Below, one piece after another: positions 2,473 to 62,351 of a stretch of 64,000 nt of DNA (position 1 is its first letter; each line of letters opens with the position of its first letter). The stretch spans positions 20,956,001 through 21,020,000 of the forward strand of contig OZ024753.1 in the NCBI GenBank assembly GCA_964016885.1. The letters run 5' to 3'. Below the pieces are notes generated by a model. It had not been told where the DNA came from and searched no databases. It worked only from the letters and a program-made list of their open reading frames with translations. The translations under genes were made by a program, and so were the position numbers. This stretch comes from Eledone cirrhosa (lineage: Eukaryota).

Positions 2473-2475
<3 letters not shown>

Positions 2476-2571
2476 TGGTTACGCAACAGTTAGTTCATCA
2501 AACCGAGAACAATTGTTTCAAGGTGAAACAATTGTTCTCGGTATGGTGAACTAACTGTTGTGTAACCACTT
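2473..2571. repeat. ~99-bp imperfect palindrome next to (TA)n, probable PLE terminus
   Basis: aagtggttacgcaacagttagttca...gtttca-agg-tgaaac...tgaactaactgttgtgtaaccactt. Confidence 0.85.
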
Positions 2572-2684
2572 CTGCCTAACTCATTCCATGGACTGAGTGC
2601 TCTACCACTACGGATATTACCTTCCAGTGTTCTACCACTATATATATATATATATATATATATGTATAATAAGTAGGAGTACAT

Positions 2685-3757
2685 CAGGGTTCGAGCCTCA
2701 GCCCCCTCTTATTCATTATAGTCCTCCAAGCCATAACAGAGGAGTTTAAGACTAGCTGTCCATAGGAACTTCTTGATGCTGATGATCTGGTTCTTATAGC
2801 AGAATCAGTAGAGGCGCTAGAGAAGAAATTCTGGCTATGGAAACAGCTGTTGGAATCAAGAGGACTGAGAGTGAACCTAGCTAAAATAAAAGTGTTGGTA
2901 AATAGAAAAGGGGACAATACTCTGATTCCATCAGGGAAATGGCCATGTTTGATATGTAGAAAAGGAACTGGCATAAATTCAATAAAATGTACGCAATGCA
3001 GATCTTGGGTACACAAGAGATGTAGTGGGATAGCAGGCAAACTAACAAGTAGGGAAAACTACGTATGCAGTAGATGTACAGGGAAAGTTGGCAGTAGTAA
3101 TCGCAATGATAGACACATTTTTCAAATGCAGGTGGGTTCTATACAAGTGGTTGATAGCTTCCGGTACCTAGGAGATCAGATTAGCATGGGAGGGGGGTGT
3201 TCCGAGGCCATAGTATCTAGAATAAAGATGGGTTGGAAGAAGTTTAGGGAGCTGCTTCCTCTGTTGACAAAGAAGGGTTTCTCCCTGCGTACAAAAGGCC
3301 GGTTATATGATGCCTGTGTGAGATGGGCGGTGCTGCATGATAGTGAGACATGGACAGCAACTGCAGAGGATATGCGAAGGCTGGAGAGATGCTCCGTTGG
3401 ATGTGCAATGTCAATGTGCGTGAACGACCAAGCATAGATGAGTTGAGAGAGAAACTGTGTATAAGAGGGATATGTTGTGGTATGCATGAGAGAAGACTGC
3501 GATGGTATGGACATGTGATGTGCATGGAGGATGACCGATGGGTAAAGATGTGCCAAGAAATGTCAGTAGAAGGAAGACACAGTAGAGGAAGACCACGAAA
3601 AACATGGGCGGAGGTGGTGAGAGCAGACCTCAGATCACTGAAACTCGCCGAGGAGATGACGAAGGACCGTGACAAGTGGAGAGATGCTGTGCTGAATAGG
3701 ACCCATCCAACCCTTGGAAGCAGGGAAAAGCAGCTGTAAAATGTAGATGATGAAGAT
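2685..3757 (+). mobile_element. RTE-clade LINE, 5'-truncated
   Basis: QG-LSPLLFIIVL, (Y)ADD-like ELLDADDL, Cys-rich insert CLIC-CTQC-WVHKRC-CSRC, FRYLGD, RRLRWYGHV, RGRPRKTW, then a (GAT)n tail. Confidence 0.9.
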
Positions 3758-3821
3758 GTATATATATATATATGTCTGTATATATATGTATGTATATATA
3801 TGTATATATATATATATGTAT

Positions 3822-4165
3822 GGAGGCACATGGCTTAGTGGTTAGAGCATTGGCCTTGCAATCGAAAGGTTGTGAGTTCAATTCTCAGACCGGGTGATGT
3901 GTTGTTTCCTTGAGCAAGACACTTTATTTCACATTGCTCCAGTTTACTCAGCTGTACAAATGAGATGATAGGGACTGGGGTCCCTATCATTCCACTGCAA
4001 AGTGGTCGTGGAGGTGCCACGGCAAAAAAGCACCCAGCACTCACTGTAAATGAGGTTGGTGTTAGGAAGGGCATCCAGCTGTAGAAATCAAGCCAGAATC
4101 AGTTCCCGTCCCACCCTTGCAAGCAGGGAAAAGCGGACGTAAAATGAAATGATGATGAATGATGA
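3822..4165 (+). mobile_element. tRNA-derived CORE-type SINE with RTE 3' tail (family 1)
   Basis: A box tggcttagtgg, B box gagttcaattc, CORE-like ccttgagcaagacactt, and a 3' end shared with the RTE UTRs. Confidence 0.85.
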
Positions 4166-4195
4166 TATGTATATATATATAAATGTATATATATA

Positions 4196-4405
4196 TAGGA
4201 ACAAGTAAGACCCCGACGGCTGAGCTCAAGCCGTTTCGACGGCTAATTCTGTACAAAATTAGCAGTCGAAACGGCTTGAGCTCAGCTGTCGGGGTCTTAC
4301 TTGTTCCTATTACCCACTCTACTACCCTAAGTATTGAGTACTTTGGTGCGTTATGGTCCACCTGGTTCCTTACCACGTTTCCTTCGTTATGTATATATAT
4401 ATATA

Positions 4406-4438
<33 letters not shown>

Positions 4439-4585
4439 CGAAGGAAATGTGGTAAGGAACCAGGTGGACCATAACGCACCAAAGTACTCAATACTTGAGG
4501 TAGTAGAGTGGGTAATAGGAACCAGTAAGACCCCAGAATTAGCCGTCGAAACGGCTTGAGCTCAGCTGTCGGGGTCTTACTGGTT

Positions 4586-4590
<5 letters not shown>
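4196..4590. mobile_element. Nested inverted repeats of a PLE-type terminus containing the 3' half of a hammerhead
   Basis: A palindrome at 4196-4310 plus inverted arms ~4291-4390 and ~4435-4534. Motif gtcGAAACggc-ttgagctca-gctGTC/gggg. Confidence 0.75.
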
Positions 4591-4620
<30 letters not shown>

Positions 4621-4625
<5 letters not shown>

Positions 4626-4911
4626 TATGTTGGTGCCGCGCCATCCAGGCCGAAACAAATGAGATCGTGAAGGTGTCACGACAAAAAAACACACAGTCCA
4701 CGCTGTAATGTGGCCGTGTAGGCAACACGGTAAAAACCTCCCAGACCCACACTGTAAATGTGGTTGGTGTTAGGAAGGGCATCCAGCTGTAGAAAACCTG
4801 CCAGACAGTCCTATGCGAGCAAGACAATCACTCTTGCCTCAAGTGGGACTACCCCCGTCCAAACCCATGCAAGCGTGGAACGCGGACGTTAAACGTTGAT
4901 GATGATGATGA

Positions 4912-4913
<2 letters not shown>
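4621..4913 (+). mobile_element. Isolated RTE 3'-UTR tail
   Basis: Reverse complement of 2081-2385, with a (GAT)n tail. Confidence 0.8.
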
Positions 4914-4946
<33 letters not shown>

Positions 4947-4948
<2 letters not shown>

Positions 4949-5400
4949 CACATGATTTAGTGGTTAGAGCATTGGCCTTGCAATCGAAAGGTTGTGAGTT
5001 CAATTCTCAGACAATGGGTGATGTTGTTTCCTTCAGCAAAACACTTTATTTCACATTGCTCCAGTTTACTCAGCTGTAGATGAGACTGGGGTCCATATCA
5101 TTCCACTGCAAAGTGGTCATGCAGGTGCCACGCCAAAAAAGCACCCAGTACTCACTGTAAATGAGGTTAGACGGGTTCTCCTTGTTGTAGGCAGTGTTCG
5201 GTCGGCTGAACTTGTCTTCCTCATATGGGGACTGATTCTGGCTTGATTTCTACAGCTGGATGCCCTTCCTAACACCAACCTCATTTACAGTGAGTGCTGG
5301 GGCTAGGTGCTTTTTTTCCATGGCTCCTCCATGGTGTGGGGGCCTATTGTCTATATGCTTCAGCTTTGGCTTGTACCCGTGGGGGGTCGGGTCTTCTTAT
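4947..5400. mobile_element. Family-1 SINE (+, ~4947-5168) fused to an RTE tail (-, ~5166-5400)
   Basis: Same tRNA head and CORE block as 3822, followed by the reverse complement of the RTE UTR seen at 22030-22330. Confidence 0.75.
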
Positions 5401-5412
5401 ATATATATATAT

Positions 5413-5496
5413 ATATTTATTAAAATAACAGATTAAAGTTTAAGTAAAGAATTGCGATTCTTTGCTTAAACTTCAATCTGTTATTTTAATAAATAT
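5413..5496. repeat. ~84-bp palindrome next to (TA)n, PLE-terminus family also present at ~62255-62340
   Basis: tttattaaaataacagattaaagtttaagtaaagaat / attctttgcttaaacttcaatctgttattttaataaa. The homologue at ~62260 is preceded by hammerhead-like cagaaga-tccc-attaa-gggt-gaaa. Confidence 0.8.
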
Positions 5497-5582
5497 TTGC
5501 TCTACGGTTCTTATATATTTGATATATATTTATCCTTATCGAGCCCTCTTTGGATTTTAGTCTTCAATTTTATTATTATTAC

Positions 5583-5620
<38 letters not shown>

Positions 5621-5639
5621 TTTAGTTCCACCACAAATT

Positions 5640-5970
5640 AGCAAACCATACTCAAGGAGGTGTGTTTTACCTAGCGAATTTTCAACTACAAGAAGGCCTG
5701 AAACATGACCTCTTCAACAACGGTGTCATATACCTGCAATAGTCTATGAGGCTGAACTTACATCTATTCAACCAAACCAACACCAGGAGGTCAAAACATA
5801 TGTAGGCACGGTGGATCGCCGGTTTAAAAGACACTTCCTTAACCATCCTTTAGACACTCTGATAAGGGATCATCATGAAGCTAACAAGCCACATATGGTC
5901 ACTCAAAGATGCATATGTCGATTACGCCATTCAATGGAAAGTGCTGACCAAATCTAGACCATGCAGATGG
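5640..5970 (+). pseudogene. GIY-YIG endonuclease remnant of a Penelope-like element (Naiad-like spacing)
   Basis: Manual translation: (C/*)PLQQRCHIPAIVYEAEL-KTYVGTVDRRFKRHFLNH, then SHIWSLKDAYVDYAIQWKVLTKSRPC after frameshifts. Confidence 0.7.
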
Positions 5971-6045
5971 TTATCAGCCCAGTGCTGATACCCATCTTTC
6001 TCCGCTCAGTATAAATGCCCCTTTATTAAACTATATTTTGTAGTC

Positions 6046-6123
6046 AAAGTTACGGCTATGCTTCTATTTCAATTTGCGGGATTTTAATCCTGCAAATTGA
6101 AATAGAAGCATAGCCGTAACTTT
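6046..6123. repeat. 78-bp palindrome just downstream of the GIY-YIG remnant
   Basis: aaagttacggctatgcttctatttcaatttgc / gcaaattgaaatagaagcatagccgtaacttt. Confidence 0.85.
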
Positions 6124-6199
6124 CTAAAGGAAATTTTTCATTATGTCTATATATATTTTTCACATTAGCTCCAATTATTTTTATCTTACTGAGTATGCG

Positions 6200-6458
6200 A
6201 CTGTAAATTGGAGAACATTCTGAGAGAGTGCACTTGCTCTAGTGGACAAGGTTACCGTGACTTTTTGTGGGCTTTCTCCACAAGTGACCTTCTTTTAAGG
6301 AATTTGTTGTTTTAATTTTTTAAATGTTTATTTCATAGTTTGCTTTATAAACCTTTTTCTTACACAAAAAGACCCAACACTGTCCTGTACTGTCTTTATT
6401 GTCTTCTTAATGTAAGCCCTATGGGTAATAAAGAAACCATTATTATTATTATTATTAC
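6200..6458 (+). mobile_element. L1/Tx1-like 3' tail
   Basis: cactgtcctgtactgtctttattgtc...aataaagaaaccattattatt resembles the Tx1 tails at 44190-44262 and 51180-51272. Confidence 0.5.
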
Positions 6459-6699
6459 TATAGTTATCTTTCTTCATCTTCTTTCAGACTTTACATCAAT
6501 CTTTATATAAGTACCTTTAACAAACCAATAGTGCTGACTGTTTGGCTGTTGATTCATGGAACTTTTTCTTTTAATCATCAAAATCTGTTCACAATATTTG
6601 GACTTACCATTTGGCTGATTTCTATGACAACATATTCTTTTATTTATTACAAAAAAGAAACCAAACAGAAAGAAAAAATAACGGCAAGTTCAGTTTTAT

Positions 6700-7852
6700 C
6701 TTTGTCTTTTGCTTTTTTTTCTCTATAATCATTTTCATTGCTGAGGGGAGTCAACCATAGGTTTTTCATTCTCCTAGAGGTTAATAAATTGATTACCAGT
6801 CAAAGATTGAGATCAATAAAAAGGGCTTATTGGTTGGTTGGTTGGTTCGATAACTGGATGGTTGTTTATATATTGTCAACGCTCTTTCATCACACATTCT
6901 GTGACCTCCTCAGTGACTGGGTTTTTATTTTGTGTCTCTCCTTTGTTCTATCCTACACCATCTTGGTTTTGTGTTGAGTGCTGTGCACTTAGTTTGCGCA
7001 TGAATTATATCCATGTGTGTGTGTTTATTTTATTTATTTATGTGTTTATTTACTTGTCACTAATTGATTGTTTGTTCTATCTGTGTGTGCCTGATTTGTT
7101 TTGTTAGTTTGTTTTTGTGTGAGTCTATTTGTCTTCATTTTGTCCTTAATTACTAGTTGAGATGTTGCTATTCCACTCATGTTTTCTGTTTAATTTTGGT
7201 TGGAGTTCGTTTATGTTTGTCACCTCTGTGGTTTGTCTGAGCATTGCATCTTTTCTGTATGTAGATATAATTTTTATCTCTATGTTCTCTAATGTGCCCC
7301 CATGTTCTATTTTGGCATGTTGGTGGAGTACTGATGAGTTTTTTCCATCCTGGAGTTTTCGCCAATGTTTACTTATCCTTTCTCCTATGCTATGGGCTGT
7401 CTCACCTATGTATGTTATGTTCTTATTCCTACACTGTCCCTCGGTACATCTTTTGCAAAAGACAACGTTTTTATAATTTTTATATTTAACTTGCAGACTA
7501 TGCATTTCCTATCAGCACAGGGGGATCTTTGAAATGGGTATGTTTTGCTAATTAGGGTTTTTACGGGAATACCTGGTCTTTCAACTCTCTTAATATTTAA
7601 TTTTAGTTTGTCTAGAGACTTTCTAAATCTGTAAACTAGTTCGCCTCTAGGGGTTGCATTGATGAATGTTACACTCCAATATTTATTGCTATCATATCAT
7701 GAGTTGATTTTATTTGTCTTTTTCTTAATCCTTTCTATTTTATTCCAAAATTTGTTCCTAAGCATGAGACAAGTCCTATTTGCATCATTTTCTACAATCT
7801 TTGCCCGTTTGGTCCTGGTTCCTTTATACCTCCTGATCTTAATTATTATGTA
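6700..7852 (-). mobile_element. Penelope-like element 3' part (GIY-YIG domain and terminal repeat)
   Basis: ORF 7146-7505: NVVF-C-C-YIGETAHSIGERISKH-SVLHQH-H-RQTTE-I-PKLN. An upstream CxxxxCxxC motif and a downstream hammerhead-like motif are also present. Confidence 0.85.
6875..6917 (-). ncRNA. Type I hammerhead ribozyme-like motif (stem III imperfect)
   Basis: gtca CTGAGGA g gtcac-agaatgt-gtgat GAAA gagcgt tgac. Stems I and II pair. Confidence 0.55.
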
Positions 7853-7854
7853 TT

Positions 7855-19292: not shown

Positions 19293-19419
19293 CACATAGA
19301 ATTAAGTTCAGCGATGAGCTGACGATAGAATCTTGAGCATTTTTTTTTTAAAGTATTGCAATTCTTTACATGCAACTAATCATGTGCCACTATACAGGTT
19401 TTCAATTTAAAAAAAAAAC

Positions 19420-19551
19420 ATTTGCTAACAGTGTTTCATCCATACCCTAGGGCAGGAATCATCGGAGCCTATAAACAACCTTAGATATATTTTTGTTTAT
19501 AGGCTCTGATGATTCCTGCCCTAGGGTATGGATGAAACACTGTTAGCAAAT
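19420..19551. repeat. 132-bp palindrome with a hammerhead motif in each arm
   Basis: Plus-strand right arm: gct CTGATGA ttcc-tgccctagggta-tggat GAAAC act GTT agc. The left arm is its reverse complement with the core changed to CCGATGA. Confidence 0.85.
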
Positions 19552-19574
19552 AAAACAATGTATTTCTAAGCACT

Positions 19575-22375
19575 CTATGACGCCAATGACATGTCAATAT
19601 GTAACACAAACTTCAAAAAACCCGACAACCACCTGATCACCTATAGATCAGGGGAGCATTCTAGTCAGATAGATTTTATCCTCATCAGAGGACGTGACAG
19701 ATGGACGGTCGTAAACACAAAAGCCTTCCCTAGTGAGGAATGTACCTTCCAACATAGCTTAGTTGTCAGCGACCTCATGGTCAGAACTAGACGAACCTGG
19801 AAACAGGAGCCAACCTGGAGAAGAAAGATCTGGAAGCTGAAAGACCCCTCAGCCAGTAACAGATTTAAAGATATTTTACTCAACGCCTACGACAGTAAAG
19901 AAGAATAGATAGACATTCAATGTAGAAGAGCACTGGGAGTTCCTAAAAAATAACTTACTAGAGGTGACGGATGAGATCTGTGGCTGGAGTAAGACCACAG
20001 GCAGGCAGAGAGTGACTTGGTGGTGGAACAATAAGGTAGATGAGGCAGTTAAGGCCAAGAGACAGGCATGGAAAGAATGGGGGAAGCAGGGTACATTACA
20101 TAGAGACCAGAAGGGAAGGTAGGAGACAAGTATAATTAGCTAGGAGGGAAGCAGAGGATAGAAAATTCAAGCATGTTTTGCAACGTGAGGACCAGAAACA
20201 GGAGGCGTTCAAGATTGCGAGGCAGTGTGTCGGAGAGAATTGTGATGTCATTGGAGAGAAGTGTATTCGGAATGATAAAGGTGAGCTTGCACTCACAAGT
20301 GCTGAGAAGAAAGACGCGTGGAAGAGCCATTATGAGAGATTACTAAATGAGGAGAATGCATGGGAAGAAGTGACCCTACCCTAAGTAGAACCTGTAGGGG
20401 GACAGCAGTACAAGTCAGCAGCAGCGTAGTAAATAAGGCAATCAAAAATATGAAGATGGGGAAGGCAACCGGTCAATCGGGTATAGCTGCCGAGATGCTG
20501 AAGGCATCTGGGTAAGTAGGTCACACCATAACCACACATATTGTTAACCAGGTAATACTAGGTGTCATACCAAAAGATTGGTGCAGTAGCATCATTGTCA
20601 ACTGCTACAAAGGTAAAGGTGATGCACTAGATAGAGGAAACTATAGAGGTATAAAGCTGATGGACCAGGTCATGAAAGTAACAGAAAGAGTTATAGCACA
20701 GTTGATTAGGGACCGGATGAAACTAGATGAGATGCAATTTGGGTTTGTGCCAGGAAGAGGCACCACTGATGCCCTCTTCCTTGTGAGGCAGTTACAGGAA
20801 AAGTACCTAGCTAAAAGTAAGCCACTCTAACTGGCATTCGTTGATCTCGAGAAAGCCTTTGACAGACTTCCCCATACTATAATCTGGTGGGCTCTTAGAA
20901 AACTAGGAGTAGTTGAATGGCTTGTGAAAGCTGTACAAGCCATGTATAGGGGAGCAGTCAGCAAAATTAGGATTAGAAATGAGTATAGCGAGGAATTTAG
21001 CGTACAGGTCGGTGTCCACCAGGGCTCTGTTCTTAGCCCTCTCCTGTTCATCATAGTCCTACAGGCAATAACGAAGGAGTTTAAGACCGGATGCCCATGG
21101 GAACTCCTGTATGCAGATGACCTTGCACTTATAGCTGAATCTATGGGAGAACTAGAGAAGAAATTCCAAACATGGAAGCAGGGACTAGAAAGAAAGGGTC
21201 TCAAAGTCAACCTGGCAAAGACTAAGGTCCTTGTAAGTAGACGAGAAAACAGAACCCAGATCCCCTCAGGGAAATGGTCTTGCTCAGTATGTAGGAAAGG
21301 TATAGGTAGGAACTACATTCTCTGCTCCAAATGCAAACAATGGGTACACAAGAGATGTAGCGGGATCTCAGGAAGCTTAACTAAGAATGTAGGCTTCACA
21401 TGTAGCAGCCACATGCAAACAGCCACAGGAAACAAGTACCACCAATCTCTGGAAGGGCTCTATAGAAACAGTAGACAGCTTCTGCTACCTAGGTGACCAA
21501 ATTAGCAGCGGAGGTGGGTGTTCGGAAATTACAATAACTAGGGTAAGAACGGGATGGAAGAAGTTCAGGGAGCTACTGCCACTGCTAGCTGCAAAAGGCT
21601 TTTCCCTCAAAATGAAAGGCAGACTGTATGATGCGTGTATCCAAACGGCAATATTACATGGTAGTGGGACCTGGGCGCTGTCTGTGGAAGACATGCATAG
21701 ATTAGAAAGAAACGAAGCCTGCATGCTCCGATGGATGTGTAATAGTAATATACGTGAACAGTAAAACATAAATGAATTGAGAGAGAGACACTGTGCATAA
21801 GAGGAATCAAATGCTGTGTGCAAGAGAGGCGTTGTGTTTGTATGGACATGTGATGCATATGAAGGATGACAGCTGCATAAAAAGGTGCAGAACACTAGAA
21901 GTCCATGGAAACCGCGGAGTGGGAAAACCCAAGAAGACCTGGGATGAGGTGATAAAAGCCAACCTTACTCAGTTACACCTCTCAAAGGCGATGACACACG
22001 ACCGTGACCTCTGGCGTCACGCAGTAATACAGAAGACCCGACCCCCCATGGGTACAAGCCGAAGCTGAAGCATATAGACAATATGCCCCCACACCCTCCA
22101 CTGCAAAGTGGTCGTGGAGGTGCCACGGCAAAAAAAGCACCCAGCCCACACTGTAAAGTGGATGTGTAGGCGCCACGGCAGAAAAGCACCCAGCACTCAC
22201 TGTAAATGAGGTTGGTGTTAGGAAGGTCATCCAGCTGTAGAAATCAAGCCAGAATCAGTTCCCATATGAGCAAGACTAGGTCAGCCGACCGGACACTGCC
22301 CACAACAGGACAACCCGTCTAACCCATGCTAGTGTGGAAGAATGGACATAAAACAGTGATGATGATGATGATGAG
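19575..22375 (+). mobile_element. RTE-clade LINE (APE C-terminus to 3' tail), decayed
   Basis: ITYRSG-SQIDFIL, TWWWN, NYRGIKL, QFGF-G, VHQGSVLSPLLF, LLYADD, Cys-rich insert, (GAT)n tail. Confidence 0.92.
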
Positions 22376-22437
22376 TGTTTCCGTAGGAAAGGTAAAGGAT
22401 TGGAGAGTGCTCTATGTAGGCTACAGAGCTATTTAGT

Positions 22438-22650
22438 TAGTTATGTAATAAACAACATAAGACAATTATTCCATTTCACGAAGACGGACGAGCTCGACAC
22501 GGACGTCTGAAATCGCTCATCAGAATGACATTTTATATCTAAAATTTTATATCTTACATCCACTTCAAATAAAATTTCATTCTGATGAGCCATTTCAGAC
22601 CTGTCTTCGTGAAACCTTTGGTAAATGGAATGTTGTTTATTACATAACTA
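22438..22650. repeat. Imperfect inverted repeat of a hammerhead-bearing PLE terminus (same family as 46350 and 53360)
   Basis: Ends tagttatgtaataaacaacat / atgttgtttattacataacta. Plus strand 22576-22630: ttcatt CTGATGA...GAAACC ttt GGTA aatgga. Confidence 0.75.
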
Positions 22651-22672
22651 TATATATATATACATATATATA

Positions 22673-23741: not shown

Positions 23742-23743
<2 letters not shown>
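22673..23743 (-). mobile_element. RTE-clade LINE 3' fragment
   Basis: KGRLYDACIRTAMLHGSET-LERNE-RRLHWYGHV-GRPKMTW plus UTR. Lies opposite to the 19575-22375 copy. Confidence 0.9.
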
Positions 23744-23787
<44 letters not shown>

Positions 23788-23871
23788 CGTTATTCCGGGT
23801 TGAATCGGAGGTAACCACAGTAAGTGAGGTACTCAATACATTGCAGAGTATAAAAGTTTTAATATAGATGA

Positions 23872-23920
23872 GATTTTACAGGACTAGAACTGTTTCATTC
23901 TTTAGAAATCATCAGGAATC
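23872..23920 (-). ncRNA. Type I hammerhead ribozyme within palindrome 23886-23955
   Basis: gattc CTGATGA tttc-taaa-gaat GAAACAG ttctagtc CTGTA aaatc. The plus-strand mirror copy has a mutated core (ctgctgc). Confidence 0.7.
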
Positions 23921-23969
23921 AGATTCCTGCTGCTTTCTAAAGAATGAAACAGTTCCATACATATATATA

Positions 23970-25410: not shown

Positions 25411-25481
<71 letters not shown>

Positions 25482-25510
25482 AAAGAATAGAGGTGTAACA
25501 CACAAGTTAT

Positions 25511-26095
25511 TATATATTGGTAAACGGAATAGAAAATGCTGACAAATTGTTCACAGTTGAAAAATGGTTTAATTAGGGATAAAAGAGTATTAGTGATTGT
25601 ATGGGTTAGTATTCAGTTGTGGTTTTAAGTTTTAAAGTGTTTACCGGTTGCGCATTTCTAACCCATGCTAGTGTGGAAGATGGACGTTAAACGATGATGA
25701 TGATGATATATATATATATATGTATATAAATATATATATATGTATATAAATATATATATATAAATATATATATGTATATATGTATATATGTATATGGAGG
25801 CACATGGCTTAGTGGTTAGAGCATTGGCCTTGCAATCGAAAGGTTGTGAGTTCAAAATCATCCCAACTTCAGAATCTTTCCCCTCTACAAATTTAAAGAT
25901 AATGCCACCCACACCCAGCGCATCAGCAAGGAATCTTACTTCATTAACAAATACGGACCCCGTCTAAACACTTCTGCCTAAGACGAATCCACAACATACA
26001 CACGTCAACATACATACCTACATCAGCACACATATAAACACAATGACATACGTAAACACACATGCTCTATGGTGCAACACAAAATAATATATGTG

Positions 26096-26147
<52 letters not shown>

Positions 26148-26459
26148 ATATATGTATGTATATATATATATAGTGAATATCATTTCACACCTTTTATTGT
26201 TAAGATTTTTGATGAGAACCGATTTTACTGAAAAAATCGAATAATGTACACCATTTTACCAGGGGGAAAAAAATACTGGTCCACCCACACACACACACAT
26301 ACACACGCGTACATTAACATACAAAGAGACTTATACACACACACACACACACACGCACTTCTCAGTATAAGACAAAAGCTGAAAAATATCTTTTGACATG
26401 CTAAAATTGCTTTCAGACACATTCTTACTGACCATCCCTGCTACCACGAATTACTCTGC

Positions 26460-26490
<31 letters not shown>

Positions 26491-27073
26491 TTATCTTAAT
26501 AACCATTTGACACACATCCCTGCTAACCATTGTCACAACATCGAACACCTTACTACTACTACACACACACACACACACACATATTTGTTGTGAAAGAGTC
26601 ATTCCTCAATCTTGGCGCAAAACTAATTTTTTATTCACATGACCTCTACCGACCAATCAAAATTGTTTTGACCACAAGAATTTTTGCAAACACCAAGTAG
26701 CGCTGGAGCCACTTTTTTAACATAAAAACAGTCTTGGCGCAAAATCAATTTTTTACATTCACATGACCTCTACCGACCAATCAAAATTGTTTTGACCACA
26801 AGAATTTTTGCAACACCAAAGTAACGCTGGGGCCACTTTTTTAACATAAAAACAGGTAGAATTCCCAAAACTAATCAGATCAGAGCAAACAACACGGACA
26901 CTCTATCTCAAAATTATTTTTGAAAAGCATTTAGAAATGCGCAACCGGTAAAAACTTTAAAACTTAAAACCACAACTGAATACTAACCCATACAATCACT
27001 AATACTCTTTTATCCCTAATTAAACCATTTTTCAACTGTGAACAATTTGTCAGCATTTTCTATTCCGTTTACC

Positions 27074-27080
<7 letters not shown>
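25511..27080 (+). mobile_element. 5'-truncated Penelope-like element with an inverted terminal copy at its 5' side
   Basis: 25853-25970 translates QNHPNFRIFPLYKFK-QRISKESYFINKYGPRLN (GIY-YIG C-terminus). 25511-25660 is the reverse complement of ~26932-27081. Degenerate hammerhead gcattt-ag-aaatgc-gcaaccggta. A ~122-bp tandem duplication lies at 26610-26855. Confidence 0.75.
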
Positions 27081-27106
<26 letters not shown>

Positions 27107-27223
27107 GTTGTACTGGGTTACATGTTACCAGTAGCAGTATATATATATATATCACAACAGGGTGGTTATACATGGCCAGCTGCATATCCCAATGATTACA
27201 TAACTGCACCTATGATTGTACAA

Positions 27224-27274
27224 GCATCTGATGAAGTCACATGCATAACCATGTAGGAGAAATATATATCATGC
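27224..27274 (+). ncRNA. Type I minimal hammerhead ribozyme
   Basis: gcat CTGATGA agtc-acatg-cataac-catgt-agga GAAA tatata TC atgc, followed by aataaa. Confidence 0.7.
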
Positions 27275-27510
27275 AATAAAACAATTATGGTGAAATAATC
27301 CCGTCTTAACTACTCTTATTTGATGTAAATGTGGTTGGTGTTAGGAAGGGCATCCAGCTGTAAAATACCCGGTCAAATTTACAGTCTTTGCCTGAGCAAG
27401 GTGCGACATGGTCAACCATGGCCAGACTTACCTCCCAGCATGGACGACCTGTCTAACCCATTCAAGCACAAAAGAATGGATGCTAAATGGCAATGATGAT
27501 GATATATATA

Positions 27511-41371: not shown

Positions 41372-41427
<56 letters not shown>

Positions 41428-41534
41428 ACAAGAAAGACGGTATCATTTGTCCATCCCTGTTTATTTTGTTATACGTATTTCGAAGAGGTATAACAAAATA
41501 AATAGGGATGGACAAATGAAACCGTCTTTCTTGT
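41428..41534. repeat. 107-bp palindrome abutting (TAGA)n
   Basis: acaagaaagacggt-tcatttgtccatccct / agggatggacaaatGAAACcGTCtttcttgt. Confidence 0.85.
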
Positions 41535-45732: not shown

Positions 45733-45847
45733 GAAAAGTATAGAAATATATATATATATATAGAAGTTATATTTAATTTATTGGGAAACAACAAGCAAAT
45801 ATTTTTATAACTGATATAAAGCACTCAACAATTTTTTGGAGTAAAAA

Positions 45848-46257
45848 TACAATATATTAACAAATGGAAACTATATTTATAAAACCATATTTATTTCATT
45901 ATACATATTTCAAGGACACCAAAGCAAATTATGGTGCGCTTTCATCAGATAAAATATAATATAGATCAGTTTTATAAACAAATATTGACATACCCTTAAA
46001 GAATGCGACCATGTCGGTTGGAAGCTCCCGGAGAGTGGGGTTACTAATTTTATTATAATAAAATTAGTAACCCCACTATCTGGGAGCTTCCAACCGACAT
46101 GGTCGCATTCTTTAAGGGTATGTCAATATTTGTTTATAAAACTGATCTATATTATATTTTATGTGATGAAAGCGCACCATAATTTGCTTTGGTGTCCTTG
46201 AAATATGTATAATGAAATAAATATGGTTTTATAAATATAGTTTCCATTTGTTAATAT

Positions 46258-46263
<6 letters not shown>
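45848..46263. repeat. 416-bp spacer-less palindrome between (TA)n tracts
   Basis: Centre ttttatta|taataaaa at 46055/46056. About three mismatches between arms by eye. Confidence 0.95.
45895..45953 (-). ncRNA. Type I hammerhead ribozyme in the left palindrome arm
   Basis: tttat CTGATGA aag-cgcacca-taatttgctt-tggtgtc-ctt GAAA tatgta TA atgaa. The right-arm copy has GTGATGA. Confidence 0.7.
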
Positions 46264-46355
<92 letters not shown>

Positions 46356-46381
46356 TGTAATAAACAACATAAGATGATTAT

Positions 46382-46437
46382 TTCATTTACCAGTGGTTTC
46401 TTGAAAGCAACCAAAATTGCTTTCATTCATCAGAATC
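46382..46437 (-). ncRNA. Type I hammerhead ribozyme
   Basis: att CTGATGA a-tgaaagcaa-ttttgg-ttgctttca-a GAAACC act GGTA aat, with a perfect 9-bp stem II. Confidence 0.7.
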
Positions 46438-46888
46438 AAAAAATCCTGATTTGATAGTGGATTTGAAAAACAAAAATATAACAGATATGAAAGTGAGGCT
46501 GGAGGAAAAGAAAAGGGGCGGGGAGTAATAAATAAGAATATATAACACAACACACACGCTCACGTATATACATATCCACGCGTATATACACATTTATATA
46601 CACAGACACGTATACACACATATATATCCATATATATCCATACATAAATACACCAACACACATATATATATATATACATATATATACATATATACACATA
46701 TATATACATACATATATATATACATATATATATATACATATATACACACACACATATATACATACACACATATATACACACATGCATACGTACTCACATA
46801 TAAAAGGATACAAATAAGAATAAATAATCATAATAGGCCGTCACATACAAATAAGCAAATAAAAATTAAGGATTAAGAAAATAAAAAA

Positions 46889-49800
46889 TGTGGGTATGGT
46901 GTGGCGTGCGCTGGCCGGAAGCGGGGGGCCTCTCTAGTGGTGACCAGCAATGGTGTGGACGCGAGTTTTAGCAGCTCCCGGTGTTAAGCAGTTGGACGCA
47001 CGTGGAAGAGGAGAGACCAGCAGTGGAATTTAGCGGCGCCTATGAAAAGCGGTAAGTGAGATAGCTTTTTCTAACCACAAGCTATTTCCGCACTGGAAAC
47101 TGAGATCTGATTGAAAAAAAAAAAGGCTACTGGAAAAACAGAGAGGAGTCTGATGTTTTTTTTTATCACGTACCGCAAGACAAATTAGAAGATGGCGACA
47201 AGACTACGAACAAGCGAAGCTATCAGGGCATTTGCCGGGGAAGGTGATGTCGCTTGGATGCGAAAAGTCCGGCTGGTCGCAAGCTTGCAGAAGATAGAAG
47301 ATGTGGCTGGCCTCATGGCACTGTACCTCGAGGGGGACGCGTTGGTACTCTTCCTTGAGTTGGACGAACACAGCCAAAGAGAGGCGCATGATAGAAGCGT
47401 TCGCAGAGGGACCGTTAGCCGCTTTCGCTAAGCTGGCAAGAATTAGATGGAACGCGTTGATATTTTCGCAGCGGAAATACGGCGATTGGCTATGTTGGCT
47501 GGATATCAGGTGGAATGTGAACGCACGGTGCGGTTGGCATTCATAAATGGATTTCCAGACGACATAGCGGTGAAACTGCAGCAAGTCCCGGGTTACAAAG
47601 AAATGGAAATGCGTTCACTGGTGGAACAAGCCCGGATGATAGCAGAAGATGCCAAAACGAGTGTTGCCGCGATAGCAACTACAGAGGCTCAAGACAGCTG
47701 GCAGCGAAATGGTGAAAGGGAGGCAACCACGGCACGCGGTCGCCCGCGAACGTTTAGAGGTCGCTGTTTTCGGTGCCAGGGCCCGCACATGGCTAGAGAC
47801 TGCAGAGAGTCAAGGCCGGAAATAATATGCTACCGGTGTAAGCAACCAAGGAAACGATCCAAGGGGAACTACTGCGCCGGTAGTTGCTCCTTACGAGTAG
47901 AGGCGCTTCCCGTGGTGGAAGTCTTCGTGAGGGGAAAGCCACAGCGAACCCTCGTGGACACGGGCTGTATGACGACACTGGTGACCGCAGAGGTGGAGAG
48001 GGAAGAGCAGCGTAAGGGAAGTCGACGGCAGGAAAATTGAATGCCGAGGTCGCAGCGAGATGGAAATAGCGGTACGGGGAAGGAAAATAAGGCTTTCTGC
48101 CATCGTAGTGGACAGCGTGGTGGATGGGATGCGCGTGGTTATGGGCATGGACGCAATTGGCCGTCTAGGAGGCGTCACAGTGAACAACGACGGTGTGTCG
48201 TTTGACGCCGCTGCATCGGTGTGCGCTGTGAGTGTGCGACAGGAGAACCAGAAGGCCCACGAGGAGAAATACCCCGCCTACACTGTGCAGGACAAAGACT
48301 TCAAGGCCGTGTTCGATGGGTTGTTGAGTGGTACTGGAAGGGAGAACCACCAACACTGAAGACCAATGTGGGCTGCTATCAACACACATTGAAGGGAAAC
48401 ATTAGGAACGAGTTCGAGCGAGAGATAGAGAGATGGATTGAGAAGGGCATACTGCTTCCCTGGAAAGAGGAGGTGAAGTGCGGAGTATTGCCGTTAATGG
48501 CGGTGACGCAACCCACGAAGAACAAGGTGAGGCCGGTGCTGAAATTTCGGGAGCTGAACGAGCACGTGTCATGCCACACGGGTGGCGAGGTCACGGATGT
48601 CTGTGGGGAAACCCTGCGTGAGTGGAGACGCATGACGGGGGGTTCAGCAATCGTAGATCTAATGTCGGCATAATTGCAATTGCATATAGATGAGAAGCTC
48701 TGGCAGTATCAGCTGGTCAGGTATAAGGGCCGGACATATTGCCTGACCAGGCTCGGTTTCGGGCTGAGCTCCGCACCGAAGATCATGGCGGCGGTCCTCA
48801 AGACCATTCTGGGAAAGGCCGACAAGATGAAGTGGGCCACTAACTCCTATATTGACGACATCCGAGTGGACGAGTCTGTGGTGTCGGCGGCGGAGGTCAC
48901 GAGCCATTTACAGGAATATGGACTGGCTGCGAAGCCGTCAGAAGCGTTGGAGGGAGGAGCCGCGCTGGGACTTAGGCTACGGCGAGACAGGATGGGCGGC
49001 TTGGTATTCCAGAGGGGAAATGAAGTTCCAGAACTGGGCCCAAGTATGAGTAGGCGGGAGCTTTTCTCGGTGTGTGGAAAGTTGTTGGGTCACTACCCGA
49101 TTGCTGGGTGGCTCCGGACGTCATGCAGCTATGTCAAGAGACGAGCGGGAGGAGTGACAGAGTGGGAGAGAGGACGGTGGCCATGATGCAGGAGATCGTG
49201 GGGAGGGTGAAGGCCGACGACCCAGTGCGGGGACGCTGGTATGTTCCCAAATCACAGAGCGGGACCGTATGGTGCGATGCCAGCAGCATAGCGCTGGGTG
49301 ACACGTTGGAGATAGGAGGTGTTGAGGTCGAGGATGCAGCCTGGCTTAGGAAGAAGGATGACTGCAACCACATCAATGTGGTCGAACTGGACGCATTGTT
49401 GAGAAGGGTGAACCTCGCCCTGAAGTGGGGACTGCACACCATCGAGATACGCACCGACTCGGCTACTGTACTCGGATGGGTGAGATCAGTGCTCACCAGT
49501 GAGAAGAGAGTGCAAACGAGAGGGGTGGCGGAGATGCTGATAAAGCGCCGCCTGGGAACTTTAGGAGAGCTGGCCACCGAGTTCGACCTGAGGCTGAGCG
49601 TAGTTTTCGTGCCCTCAGAGAAAAATAGGGCAGACATCTTAACTAGGGTGAAGAAAGCCTGGATGGAGGCGCCGGAGGAGGTAGAAGATGAGATAGCTGC
49701 CGTGTGTCGGCTGACCGAGTCGGATCTGAAAGGATTGCATGACATGCACCACATGGGAGTGGATAGGAGCCTGTTCCTAGCCAGGAGAATCGACTCGGCC

Positions 49801-50940
49801 GTTAACAGACACAGTGTTCAAAGGGTGGTTAGAGGCTGCGTCCGATGTCAGTCCATTGATCCCGCTCCGGGTGCACACGAAACGGGAAGCCTCCCGGTGG
49901 ATCGCGACTGGAAGCGATTGGCGGTGGGTGTAACGCACTACCGACAGGGAACGTACCTCTCGATGGTCGACTGTGGACCAGGACGGATGGCGATATGGAG
50001 GGAGATGAAGACTGGAACGGCCGAGGAAACCATGCGGACGTTGAGTGAGGTGTTCTTGGAGCGGGGCCCTGCGGACGAACTGCTGATGGACAACAGCGCA
50101 GCGTTCCGCTCGGAGGCGCTGAGGGAGATGGTCGATGGATGGAAGGTGGACCGTTTCTTCAGAGCAGCGCGCAGGCCGAGCGGGAATGGAATTGTGGAGC
50201 GACACCACCGGACGATCAAGGCAATGGCGGAGCGGGGCTATATCTCACCAATGGAGGCAGTGTTCTGGTACAACATGTCCCCTCAGGTGGGACAGGTCGA
50301 GGAATCGGTGCCACACAGAGCAGTATTCAGATACGAGTGGCGGCACCCGTGCACGCCACCACAACGGCCAGTGGGGAGAGAGAGTGCATTCGTGCAGGTG
50401 GGCGAAGAAGTCTGGGTTAAGCCCCCAGGTGCACGTTGCACATCTCAATGGGGAAAGGGAACGGTGACGGCTGTAAATTCCCAGAACAATATGTCCGTGG
50501 ACGGAGTACCACGTCATGTCCTGGATGTCCGTAGAATCACTGTGTCAACGGACTCCGAGGAAGAGGAAACCCAAAGTGCTGCCCCAACACTGCGGAGATC
50601 GCAAAGAAGTCATAAACCACTAACCTGGACAGCAGACTTTCATATGCAGAAGGACGAGGGGGAAATTGATCCTTGAGATCAGGGGGGCGTGTGGGTATGG
50701 TGTGGTGTGCGGTTGCCGTAAGCGGGGGAGTGCTCGACCGGAAGAGTGCCTGGCCGGAAGGATGCTCGACCGGAAGGGCCAGCAGAGGGCCTCTCTAGTG
50801 GTGACCAGCAACGGTGTGGACGCGAGTTTTAGCAGCTCCCGGTGTTAAGCAGTTGGACGCACGTGGAAGAGGAGAGACAAGCAGTGGAATTTAGCGGCGC
50901 CTATGAAAAGCGGTAAGTGAGATAGCTTTTTCTAACCACA
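46889..50940 (+). mobile_element. Full-length Gypsy-like LTR retrotransposon, frameshifted (LTRs 46889-47079 and 50690-50940)
   Basis: TG...CA LTRs, aaaaa on both flanks, PPT aggggggcg. Gag CFRCQGPHMARDC, protease LVDTG, RT TRLGFGLSSAP/YIDD, RNase H WCDASS-HINVVEL-IRTDS, integrase HHMG-CVRC-DNS-GIVERHHRTIK. Confidence 0.93.
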
Positions 50941-51119
50941 AAAAATATTAAGTTGACAGCGATACAAGACGGCAATGTGTTTATATGTATGGGGTGTGCT
51001 TGTATATTTATATGTATGTGTATATGTATATAAAAATGTGTGTGTATGTACACATATATATGTGTGTGTGTATATATATATATATTTAGGGTTTTTTTGT
51101 GCATATGCTTACCACGTGT

Positions 51120-51272
51120 TTATTTTATATTTTTATATCTTCATTGTTAAATTAGTCTTACCATTGTGCACTTTTACTCGACCTTATTGTAAACCCCCAC
51201 TGTCCCTGTCTTTGTATTGTCCCCTACATGTCGGCCCTTGTGGCTAATAAATGAAATCATTATTATCATTAT
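51120..51272 (+). mobile_element. Tx1 subfamily B extreme 3' tail
   Basis: Matches 44120-44262. Confidence 0.8.
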
Positions 51273-51956
51273 TCTAATTTTAAATTTTGCCCTCTTGTAT
51301 CGCTGTCAACTTAATAATATTTTTATTTTTTTATTTTCTTAATCCTTATTTTTTATTTGCTTACTTGTATGTGACGGTCTATTATGATTACTTATTCTTA
51401 TTTGTGTGCGTGCCTATGTATCCTTTTATATGTGAGTACGTATGCATGTGTGTATGTATGTATGTATGTATGTATGTGTATGTATGTATGTATATATATA
51501 TATGTATATATATATATATGTATGTGTGTGCATGTATATCCTAAACAGACGGTAGTCCGTTTAGTAATATTGTTGTGGTCGTGTTTTCGTTGGCAATCGT
51601 CTGTTTACGACAGTACAGCGCGGCTCTACTTTATTTAACTTAGATAAAACTTATATGAGCATGAACAGTAGATCATTACGCATCTTTTGGCTTAAAAATC
51701 TAGAAATTTGGTCCAGCGGGAAAAAGTTTATAATCAAAGTTTGCTGATAACTCTTGTGTTCAAGTGAGTGAGTAGTAAGCGTGACGCTAGGGGAGGTAAT
51801 CCAGAAATGACGTAGCTTTGTCATTAAGCCAGTTGCCTCAACTAGATTGCAATTATACTCAAAAGAACTTTTAAATGTCAATCACTTGTCAGTAATTCAC
51901 TATGATCATTTAATTATTAGATAGTTGTTGCTTGCATTGCCTTAAAAAATAGTAGA

Positions 51957-53041
51957 CCAGATAGAAAAATGCATACAGCAAAAAAAAGTAATATTGTTGG
52001 AATATAAACCTTTAAAAATACAGGACAAGAAACTAAAATAAAACTTTAAAAGAATAGGACAAGAAACTAAGATAAAACTTTAAAAGAATAGGACAAGAAA
52101 CTAAGATAAAACTTTAAAGAATTGGACAAGAAATAAAAAATGTTACAATAATATTAGTGGCAAAATTCTTTTATTCGTTTCCTGGGCTATGCCCCAGTAT
52201 CTTCTTGATTAGTGCATAATAATTGTCATGCTCTCATTGTGCGTTGCCCCTGAGCAGTTGGTTCTGGTTGGGGTTGGTTGGCTGAGCAGTTCTGTTCCGT
52301 CAGAATGACCATTGCAAGAAGAATTGGCCGATGCAGCTGCAGGTCTCCTCCAAGAATGCACTTCTGGTCCCGCAACACCAGACGAAGATGGAGAAGACGA
52401 CCGGGACAGGATGTCGACTCTGACCACCGACTATGGCACCTCCCTCAACCACCGGTCCTCCCTCCCTCTGTCCCGTCATCCCTCCAGTCCTCCTGCTCCC
52501 CCTTCCTGTACCAGAAAGCTGTGGCACGCATTCATCTGGACTGCCAGACTTGAACTCAAAGACAAGATGCAAGGAGAAGATGGACGGGTTGGTCAAGATC
52601 AAGGATGAGCGGGACGACAAGACCGTCCGCTGCTGCTCAAGATCTGTGCTCATGGGTCCATTCGCATTATGCATGACACATGAGGCGTGTCGCCGAATGA
52701 TGAAATAGGGGTATGGTTATGGCCCAATTGGTGTTCAAACCAGGATCAAATGATCCCCCCGGTCTGATGACGACCTCTGAATGTGGAACCCAGAGCCTAT
52801 GAATGTGGAACTCGATTTTTTACCAATAAAAATTTTGCCACTAATATTATTGTAACATTTTTTATTTCTTGTCCAATTCTTTAAAGTTTTATCTTAGTTT
52901 CTTGTCCTATTCTTTTAAAGTTTTATCTTAGTTTCTTGTCCTATTCTTTTAAAGTTTTATTTTAGTTTCTTGTCCTGTATTTTTAAAGGTTTATATTCCA
53001 ACAATATTACTTTTTTTTGCTGTACGCATTTTTCTATCAGG
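51957..53041. mobile_element. Element with ~215-bp inverted arms (51957-52175 and ~52824-53041) containing ~35-bp subrepeats around a GC-richer core
   Basis: The arms are near-perfect reverse complements. Subrepeat aggacaagaaactaagataaaactttaaaagaat occurs 3-4 times per arm. Confidence 0.8.
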
Positions 53042-53419
53042 TATGTATATATATATGTGTGTGTTGGTGTATTTATGTATGGATATATATGTATATATAT
53101 GTGTGTGTGTATACGTGTCTCTGTGTATATATATGTGTATATACGCGTGTATATGTATATATGTGTATATACACATATACACGCGTATATACACAGAGAC
53201 ACGTATACACACATATATATGTGAGTGTGTGTGTGTACGTGTGTGTTGTGTTATATATTCTTATTTATTATTTCCTCTCCTTTTTTTCCTCCAGCCTCAC
53301 TTTCATATCTGTTATATTTTTGTTTTTCAAATCCACTGTCAAATAAAGACACCAGGATTTTTTCATTCTGATGAAACCACTGGTAAATGAAATAATTATC
53401 TTATGTTGTTTATTACATT

Positions 53420-58140: not shown

Positions 58141-58232
58141 ACATATTACATATGTTTCACTGCCGATCAGCTCAAGGAACGATCAATTAATGCTCGATCC
58201 TGACTCTGGCATCAGAAGCTCCTCAGATATGT
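58141..58232 (-). ncRNA. Type I hammerhead ribozyme with extended stem II
   Basis: acatat CTGAGGA gcttctgat...atcggcagt GAAAC atat GTA atatgt, followed by aaataaa. Stem I is a perfect 6 bp. Confidence 0.78.
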
Positions 58233-61180: not shown

Positions 61181-61564
61181 TCTATCTCTCTCGATATATA
61201 TATATATAATCACTCCTTTATTTTTACTCCTATCTTAACTCCTTTATATTTAATTTGTATTGTACTAGGTTCAAACAATTTCAAGTTATATTTATTCCAC
61301 TACTAAAAACAATAATGGTCTTATCAAAACAAAATATCCTAATTATCTAATAAAAACACAATACTCATTGTTAAAACAAAATATTTAACAACAAAACCAA
61401 GTCTTTTGAACTGTAAAGGTCGGCTTGTTACCCTTTAGCATATTCATATGAATATATGAGCAATTATTGCCAATAAGATTTCACTCCTCAAAAAATTACC
61501 TCCAATAAAGTGTCAAAATGTATTAGCCTAATGAACTTAAAACTAAAAAAAAATTAATAATTAT

Positions 61565-61750
61565 AATAATTGTTTCTACTTTAGGCACAAGGCCAGCAAT
61601 TACCCAGTGCATTACTGGTATTTTATTTTATCGACCCCGTAAGGATGAAAGGCAAAGTCAACCTCGGCGGGATTTGAACTCAGATCGTAAAGGGACGTAA
61701 CTATGCTGGAAAGCATGGCGTCCGACCCTCTACCGATACTGCCAATCCAA
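61565..61750 (-). mobile_element. SINE family 2
   Basis: Homologue of 12995-13183, with aattataataat on both sides. Confidence 0.85.
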
Positions 61751-61933
61751 ATTATAATAATAAACAAATGTTTTTAAAGTTCTCATTGACCTCATGAATA
61801 TTGATACCGGCAGACTATACAGAAAACAACAGTGACAACAGAATATTTTATAATATTAGATCACGTTCGGTTAAAAATAATTTTTAAATAATACTCAGAC
61901 ATGTATATAATGCAAAATGAAATTGGAAGGCCC

Positions 61934-61967
<34 letters not shown>

Positions 61968-61974
61968 ATATATA

Positions 61975-62132
61975 CATGAGGTTGGTGTTAGGAAGGGAAT
62001 CCAGCTGTAGAAATCAAGCCAAAATCAGTTCCCGTATGAGCAAGACAAGGTCACCCGACCTGGCATTGCCCACAACAGGACAACCCATCCAACCTATGCT
62101 AGTATGGATGTAAAACGTTGATGATGATGATA
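61975..62132 (+). mobile_element. Isolated RTE 3' tail
   Basis: Matches 22205-22375. Confidence 0.8.
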
Positions 62133-62351
62133 TATGCGGGTGTCACAAACACATACACACACATACACATATATATTTGAAAAGAGTCAGGATCCCCGAT
62201 GGCTGAGCTCCAGCCGTTTCAGCAGCTAGGTCCAAAATCACATATATATATATAGTTTCAGAAGATCCCATTAAGGGTGAAAGCAGCGATTCTTTGCTTA
62301 AACTTTAATCTGTTCTTATAATAAATATTTGCTCTACAGGTTTATATATAT

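Follow-up and report, generated by a model that had tools for sequence, protein, structure and literature searches.

Abundant palindromes in the Eledone cirrhosa genome are very probably head-to-head terminal repeats of Penelope-like elements with hammerhead ribozymes

We analyzed the palindromes in a 64-kb stretch of repeat-rich animal DNA from Eledone cirrhosa (contig OZ024753.1, positions 20,956,001 to 21,020,000; hereafter the window), which lies on a contig of 47 Mb in an assembly of 3.0 Gb. These palindromes are a real and highly non-random feature, and they represent a known insertion structure of Penelope-like elements (PLEs), here from families of the Hydra clade and present at unusual density. 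Their PLE identity is highly probable, and it is very likely that most of them consist of two head-to-head 3′ terminal repeats, made of the end of a pseudo-long terminal repeat (pLTR), a minimal type I hammerhead and an optional tail, which derive from several PLE families and sit mostly at (TA)n.

Comparing the window with itself by BLAST recovered 11 of the 12 inverted pairs listed in an earlier, sequence-only reading at their claimed positions, and the twelfth, at 22438, was recovered in other comparisons, so that all 12 exist. Read by eye, 9 of the 12 touch (TA)n at one or both ends, in agreement with the claim that most abut this repeat; by the same reading, 6046, 19420 and 41428 have no adjoining (TA)n, the last being flanked by (GATA)n and (GT)n. 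Ten of the pairs have the PLE layout, in which the arms meet at their 5′ sides and the 3′ ends point outward, one of the arms usually bearing a tail specific to its family; most lie at (TA)n sites, and their centres vary. The palindromes had been presented as a single set, which stands for these ten; the other two are of another kind. The pair at 6046, near-unique and devoid of tail, (TA)n or hammerhead, has no demonstrated place in the set, and 51957/53041, which has no hammerhead, was rejected as a member, since this inverted repeat forms a fixed internal part of a different, ~1.5-kb element. Genome searches, which list best matches only and thus give lower bounds on family copy numbers, identified as dispersed the families D (45848), C (19420), B (4196), G (22438), A (2473) and J (41428) and that of the copy at 27224. 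Every hammerhead-bearing arm searched belongs to a dispersed family, and families E, H, S and I were recognized as incidental copies within the fetched loci (L numbers below).

Hammerheads in the window were scored with a strict type I descriptor and compared with 100 block-wise dinucleotide shuffles of the window. The strict descriptor gives 5 matches, against a shuffle mean of 0.08 and a maximum of 1, and a relaxed descriptor adds 27228(+) and 23915(-), for 7 matches against a mean of 0.68 and a maximum of 4. Four of the strict matches, at 19506-19544(+), 45948-45900(-), 46433-46388(-) and 58226-58147(-), are among the eight hammerheads that had been described as complete; the fifth, at 579(-), had not been listed and is probably a chance match. 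Six of the eight therefore stand under the relaxed descriptor and four under the strict one, while the cores at 22576 and 6875 fail both, being decayed copies of multi-copy families that have intact motifs elsewhere. An Rfam scan of the window gave no match to a hammerhead family, only tRNA-like heads of short interspersed nuclear elements (SINEs) and sub-threshold, hairpin-driven microRNA hits. None of the window pairs holds two intact ribozymes: the core of the partner arm is mutated at 19420, 23886 and 45848, an internal deletion affects the arm at 53368, and both arms are damaged at 22438. The pairs at 2473, 4196, 5413 and 41428 also belong to hammerhead families, which had been overlooked, and are cut inside the ribozyme; longer copies of these families (A, B, E and J) hold the 5′ half of the hammerhead that the window copies lack. 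No hammerhead was found in family I. In the abundant family E (window 5413 and 62254; L032, L262 and L321), the core, read by eye, is CAGAAGA (U4 to A) in nearly all copies.

As a genome-wide control, we took 99 stretches of 10 kb at arbitrary round coordinates (990 kb). They contain 86 strict minimal hammerheads, spread over 44 stretches, which corresponds to 87 per Mb (bootstrap interval 59-123) and to an estimated ~260,000 strict hammerheads in the genome (95% interval 176,000-369,000). One stretch is a tandem array with 13 matches; if no stretch is allowed more than 4, the density falls to 74 per Mb. The subset formed by the first 59 stretches (590 kb) contains 65 strict hammerheads, compared with 0-3 in 5 shuffles. 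De novo detection in this subset yielded 57 palindromes, or about one per 10 kb, which is an undercount since the filter drops AT-rich arms such as those of 45848. Thirty of the 57 abut (TA)n, against a background of 14.5%, and CTGANGA is directed outward in 17, a count that takes in the spacer, and inward in 2. The proposed co-occurrence of palindromes and hammerheads thus extends to random DNA. A scan for the U3-A8 core variant gave 6 matches in random DNA and 2-6 in shuffles; given this lack of enrichment, we claim the variant for family B alone.

The arrangement of the arms is uniform. Over all fetched loci, 149 pairs were defined by their junctions (gap of at most 15 nt, reference reaching 400 nt upstream, exact duplicates removed), and all 149 are head-to-head, with the left arm on the minus strand and the right arm on the plus strand, as had been described for the window; looser pairing gives the same orientation in 160 of 162. 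One tail is present in 128 of the 149 pairs, two in 16 and none in 5. Of the junctions, 72 are well aligned: the arms share 1 nt or more in 41, meet flush in 12 and leave a gap in 19.

Three of the families lead to PLE open reading frames (ORFs). For family B, a GIY-YIG C terminus lies 1.06 kb upstream of the family end in L167, and L229 is a tandem array with a period of 3,545 nt, a B end at each junction and a 599-aa open stretch of reverse transcriptase (RT) plus GIY-YIG; the window arms of this family are 96-100% identical to the L229 repeat (pLTR). For family D, two loci, L119 and L123, show collinearity from RT through linker, endonuclease and 3′ untranslated region to the D end, the window insertion is 96-97% identical to the L119 pLTR, and endonuclease matches compared by eye stand beside D-end matches, in the expected orientation, at no fewer than 9 loci. 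A GIY-YIG fragment in L013, tried as the family D ORF before L119 and L123 gave the link, was discarded, as it belongs to another family (PLE-A) whose pLTR is unlike the window. For family A, four loci (L214, L225, L248 and L330) have a GIY-YIG ORF whose end precedes the family end by 108-136 nt. Families A, B and D hence show the arrangement of endonuclease-positive (EN+) PLEs, with RT plus GIY-YIG at the C terminus in a single ORF upstream of the terminal repeat. This collinearity, together with the single tail of most pairs, supports the original proposal of extremely truncated PLE insertions that prefer (TA)n. PLE-A itself lies outside the window and comprises at least 150 copies of ~95% identity, with several intact ORFs of 820-821 aa, which have an asparagine-rich stretch between RT and endonuclease, and a kilobase-scale inverted layout; these copies, among them those in L051-L058, form a young burst of Hydra type. 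A tandem or partial-tandem pLTR arrangement is found in L229 (B) and in L051-L058 (PLE-A).

By their diagnostic motifs, families A, B and D are Hydra-clade RT/GIY-YIG elements. For that clade, PMC8557442 describes an RWK-like motif, a change of DKG to DKT, a CxCX5C linker, absence of CCHH and insertion at (TA)n. PLE-A carries RWT and DKT and PLE-B carries RWR and DKT, this region lying outside the fetched sequence for A and D. The linker is CxCX5C in D, A and PLE-A and CX5C only in PLE-B; PLE-A, PLE-B and D have a single cysteine between GIY and YIG; all four share CxxC..E and CxH, CCHH is absent, and insertion is at (TA)n. The CCHH motif, two cysteines between GIY and YIG and CX2-5CxxC linker of Neptune and Nematis were not found in these elements, and a Neptune label was dropped after motif comparison with the clade features of PMC8557442. 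Atlas neighbours of the PLE proteins carry RVT_1, GIY-YIG and HTH_animal. Several observations weigh against a PLE assignment of the whole set. Pfam gave no match for either full PLE protein, which leaves motifs and the atlas as the basis for the identification; no ORF link emerged for families C, E, H and I in the fetched loci, where no dedicated extension was made; and G, J and S are linked to an ORF there at single ambiguous loci only. The expectation that the arms extend to PLE RT/GIY-YIG ORFs was consequently borne out for A, B and D and left without a clear link in the others, the solo copies included, and the remaining hammerhead families likely also come from such PLEs. A PDB sequence search of the PLE proteins gave no match. 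Another PLE type, distinguished by two cysteines between GIY and YIG, is represented by GIY-YIG fragments at L045:480-700 and L229:503-1279, and a fragment in L045 is joined to a family I arm.

From the anatomy of the copies and published in vitro work, we propose a mechanism in which the PLE protein would nick both strands of an AT-rich target and each 3′-OH would prime RT at one of two internal starts, the tail end or the short end. Two antisense complementary DNAs (cDNAs) would result, on opposite strands, and their 3′ ends would be joined through a few bases of microhomology into a palindrome with a single tail; one priming per strand and per start site would account for the presence of exactly one tail per pair. 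In the ultra-short class, priming would take place at the copy of the start site near the transcript 5′ end, and synthesis of both cDNAs would end by run-off at the transcription start, ~55-150 nt on; inverted copies of greater length would be ordinary 5′-truncated cDNAs from the 3′ repeat copy. The hammerhead would be cargo, mostly incomplete or paired with an antisense copy, and is predicted not to cleave. We regard the two-priming step as probable and the run-off step as evenly poised. Combined, namely that ultra-short palindromes would be complete run-off cDNAs of the 5′ leader of PLE RNA, primed on both target strands from two internal starts, the model is put forward tentatively. According to PMC11167929, a PLE protein cuts and extends both strands, two internal RNA start sites define the tail, the protein is predicted to form a dimer, and hammerhead cleavage is dispensable; Penelope pLTRs are described as holding promoters (PMC2377424, PMC3846280). 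A run-off origin was not found stated in the published passages covered by our search, which left subscription journals aside.

The same PLEs could alternatively generate the second arm by fold-back self-priming on cDNA or antisense RNA, the stop then reflecting a block of RT at the ribozyme structure. A fold-back or self-priming model has already been published, with antisense RNA proposed as the source of the second arm (PMC3846280), and subfamily-diagnostic bases, compared by eye, usually agree between both arms. Arm lengths bear on this alternative in both directions. Among the 128 one-tail pairs, the arms are within 10 nt of each other in 77, as also expected from simple fold-back; in 37 the tail-less arm exceeds the other by more than 10 nt, in some by more than 200 nt, against 14 in which the tail arm is the longer by such a margin (p=0.002). 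Since a longer tail-less arm is not obtainable by copying the tail arm, fold-back cannot explain these 37 pairs; it may still apply to the symmetric majority. The excess of 37 over 14 owes much to loci retrieved with family queries, however, and one-tail pairs in random DNA alone show 6 with a longer tail-less arm, 2 with a longer tail arm and 12 within 10 nt, which tempers the argument for two primings. The stops lie in or beside the hammerhead, as a structural block would have it, but that of family B falls in loop II, beyond the 3′ strand of stem II and not at the helix entry. Nor is there a pile-up at the predicted cleavage site, which was rejected as the main stop: only about 1 of 58 unselected B arms ends within 2 nt of -17. 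Altogether, we consider fold-back priming unlikely as the general explanation.

Returning to the run-off model, the position of the stop was analyzed in those 31 pairs of family B that no B query had selected, with positions counted from the short end. Arms end at -52 to -65 in 48 of 62 cases and none goes further; the median ends are -55 for the tail arm and -57 for the short arm, despite starts 81 nt apart, and an exponential drop-off is rejected. In family H, the corresponding range is -58 to -66, which takes in 24 of 40 arms, and 2 arms reach further. Four of 6 long B copies, and 3 long H copies from different subfamilies, have a TATA-like box that precedes the stop by ~30 nt. This arrangement suggests that, in families B and H, the stop marks the 5′ end of the PLE transcript. 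Against this stand several points. The ends of family H are partly limited by a reference from another subfamily, and families D, J and PLE-A gave no clear single stop. The designations TATA and initiator reflect only resemblance in sequence, the TATA-like box of B overlaps ribozyme stem II, and two long B copies (L277) show a box-to-stop spacing of 35 nt. The pair definition excludes long pairs, and two long B pairs do occur in random DNA (L277, L288). Extra non-genomic bases before the putative +1 in B, 8 G and 2 A, of which ~5 are informative, are too few to carry weight. Apparent stops at -75 in family E and -111 in family S were dismissed as artefacts of short references, and a 3′ splice site at the B stop was rejected, as arms extend past the AG. 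In a single case, L165:1375-1495, the B junction holds ~120 nt of the ORF start that is normally just downstream of the tail, which is consistent with priming in the 5′ repeat copy.

A different view, raised in the sequence-only reading, is that the palindromes are independent non-autonomous ribozyme-hairpin mini-elements, transcribed and mobilized as units like SINEs or miniature inverted-repeat transposable elements (MITEs). Units of ~200 nt from family B are indeed very frequent (~22 of the first 140 loci), and a few junctions are found repeatedly, but the recurrent junctions fall on 4-nt microhomologies, the short B units lack the catalytic core, and the same sequences serve as pLTRs in ORF-bearing elements. 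Moreover, variable centres within families, named beforehand as incompatible with this view, were observed in every multi-copy family examined: across copies, the outer ends are fixed, one short and one tail-extended, and the centre differs. A family I locus, L082, for instance, is an uninterrupted palindrome with a centre differing from that of the window copy. Tails measure 65-113 nt in the families of hammerhead pairs, 140 nt in S and ~35 nt in I. A fixed MITE- or SINE-like unit therefore does not fit, and we consider mini-elements very improbable. Perfect palindromes are a known long-read artefact, and DNA contigs placed on 19350-22640 are dominated by RTE copies with no piece bridging a junction, but fold-back errors of sequencing or assembly are scarcely credible here, given that the arms differ by 1-10%, only one arm carries the tail, each family has its own constant ends, some pairs enclose elements that inserted later, and the layout has been published and is found on many chromosomes.

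The palindromes had also been expected to be a large source of self-cleaving RNA, which is not what their structure indicates: most are cut inside the ribozyme or mutated, and each strand carries a sense copy together with an antisense copy. The catalytic core, at -101, is missing from all 31 short B pairs. In predicted folding, whole palindromes form long hairpins with 67-98% of bases paired. As no window pair has two intact ribozymes and the copies fold on each other, the palindromes are predicted to be a poor source of self-cleaving RNA. Minimal PLE hammerheads are reported as inactive as monomers, weak as dimers and protein-assisted (PMC4209133, PMC11167929, PMC6765202), requiring a same-sense dimer or a PLE protein (PMC4209133, PMC11167929). 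In PLE-B, the complete motif combines a 6-bp stem III with the core UUGANAA, whose N varies in L136, L167 and L277. Taken alone, it adopts the type I hammerhead fold as its minimum-energy structure, and these properties make it a reasonable candidate for monomer activity. If transcribed, the palindromes could plausibly be a large source of double-stranded RNA.

Table 1. Coordinates of palindromes, solo hammerhead copies and related repeats in the window
Feature	Positions	Arms and motifs	Remarks
Family A head-to-head insertion	2473..2638	tail-less arm 2473-2520 (-), tail arm 2520-2638 (+)	cut within hammerhead, CUGAGGA absent
Family B insertion	4195..4388	tail-less arm 4195-4259 (-), tail arm 4251-4388 (+)	3′ half of U3-A8 hammerhead only; 96-97% identity to L229 pLTR
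Second family B insertion	4437..4590	tail arm 4437-4534 (-), tail-less arm 4533-4590 (+)	99-100% identity to L229 pLTR
Family E insertion	5413..5584	tail-less arm 5413-5455 (-), tail arm 5454-5584 (+)	cut inside variant hammerhead
Near-unique palindrome, 78 nt	6046..6123	no tail, (TA)n or hammerhead	membership unsupported
Family S solo hammerhead copy	6832..6968	(-)	decayed motif 6913-6875
Family C pair	19420..19579	strict hammerhead 19506-19544 (+)	left-arm core mutated; outer ends lost
Family G insertion	22374..22654	tail arm 22374-22533 (-), tail-less arm 22543-22654 (+)	deletions damage both hammerheads
Family H insertion	23790..23955	tail arm 23790-23918 (-), relaxed hammerhead 23915-23887	tail-less (+) arm: core mutated
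Family I pair	25478..27081	arms 25511-25661 and 26931-27081; short tail on left arm	later insertions interrupt; no hammerhead recognized
Solo copy of hammerhead family (27224)	27150..27320	(+)	relaxed-descriptor motif 27228-27270
Family J pair	41424..41534	cut inside hammerhead	CUGAAGA and tail present in longer copies
Family D insertion	45738..46264	tail arm 45738-46056 (-), strict hammerhead 45948-45900; tail-less arm 46055-46264 (+)	C3-to-G core change in (+) arm
G-related pair	46352..53418	left arm (-), strict hammerhead 46433-46388; right arm (+), deletion of stem II near 53368	nested insertions fill centre
Separate ~1.5-kb repeat	51537..53042	internal 223-nt inverted repeat 51956-52178 / 52822-53042	no hammerhead; not a member
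Solo strict hammerhead	58147..58226	(-)	strict descriptor
B-related arm remnant (-) beside family E copy	62175..62351	family E copy 62254-62351 (+)	

Other features of the window are listed here as observations in their own right. The palindrome of 78 nt at 6046-6123 has no family, tail or (TA)n; its search gave two candidates, the sole other match covering only 35 nt. The 1.5-kb repeat at 51537-53042 is young (97-98% identity) and unassigned to a class, and has a terminal hairpin besides the fixed inverted repeat in its interior; its right end and spacer are common to 10 of 11 other copies, and 6 of the 11 carry other sequence at the point corresponding to 51812/51813, an insert of ~850 nt where the far end is visible. 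An LTR element with 161-nt repeats at 97.5% identity (46920-50941) is nested in the centre of the 46350/53418 pair. The family G palindrome is flanked by two inverted copies of an RTE-type long interspersed nuclear element, forming a 2.4-kb inverted structure at 21301-23751. The Rfam scan placed the tRNA-like SINE heads at 3831-3888, 24244-24301, 24594-24662, 45187-45244 and 45524-45581.

The head-to-head structure is already published for PLEs (PMC4209133, PMC3846280, PMC8557442) and is unusually abundant here. A close match is the Hydra clade of C-terminal EN+ PLEs (Craig et al. 2021, PMC8557442), for which an inverted truncated copy, a tail and (TA)n targeting are described, and which shares with our elements RWx, DKT, the CxCX5C linker, lack of CCHH, CxxC and CxH around conserved E and N, and a pLTR hammerhead. 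In that source, Hydra-1_Obim and Penelope-13_HM are listed with hammerheads on both strands, and Penelope-13_HM has a 5′-truncated inverted copy, as in the window pairs, and a hammerhead on each strand. The families described here differ in that many co-exist at very high copy number, elements measure 3.5-3.9 kb instead of <3 kb and tails 65-113 nt instead of 30-40 bp, and PLE-B is set apart by its U3-A8 core, its 6-bp stem III and a linker without the first cysteine. Metazoan PLE minimal hammerheads (Cervera and de la Pena 2014, PMC4209133) share the type I topology and the palindromic short stem III; that work ascribes dual motifs 100-700 bp apart on opposite strands to truncated PLEs, includes a U3-A8 variant, and counts ~2,000-9,000 motifs per genome with another descriptor, against ~260,000 strict motifs here. 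In giant squid, 235 Rfam hammerheads are reported (PMC6962438). Penelope of Adineta vaga and Drosophila virilis, as presented in PMC3846280 and PMC2377424, shares the inverted 5′-truncated copy, single tail, palindromic junction and TATA- and initiator-like pLTR motifs, whereas the whole insertion here is often just two ends (150-500 nt) and arm lengths argue against self-priming as the sole route. Non-LTR retrozymes are likewise non-coding, hammerhead-bearing and PLE-derived, but are described as head-to-tail tandem units with a complete hammerhead each (PMC7761336; bioRxiv 10.64898/2026.07.22.740005), whereas window copies are head-to-head pairs with mostly broken ribozymes, or solo copies, and did not qualify as retrozymes. 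Retrozyme-like arrays were seen elsewhere in the genome: L274:281-3381 (G000:C3:190.00 Mb) has 11 head-to-tail units with a 310-nt period and L276:6638-7694 and L267:6464-6986 have 2-3 units with a ~525-nt period, all with complete hammerheads.

As the structure itself is ordinary for PLEs, what these results add is the scale of hammerheads and palindromes, and a run-off model that can be tested. The origin of the tandem and inverted ends of PLEs is called unresolved in PMC8557442, and this genome offers young families, intact ORFs and thousands of junctions for that question; through the two-priming, run-off model, which the sharp stop next to a TATA-like box opens to a direct test, genomic copies can be related to what PMC11167929 found in vitro. 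If the model is true, run-off would explain how PLEs make inverted ends, and the genome would hold tens of thousands of records mapping the RT start sites and the transcription start of each family. In PLE-B, transcription would then start inside ribozyme loop II, such that only the downstream copy, a U3-A8 hammerhead predicted to be competent as a monomer, could cleave. With ~87 strict hammerheads and ~100 palindromes per Mb, genic transcription would supply long double-stranded RNA hairpins for editing and small-RNA pathways.

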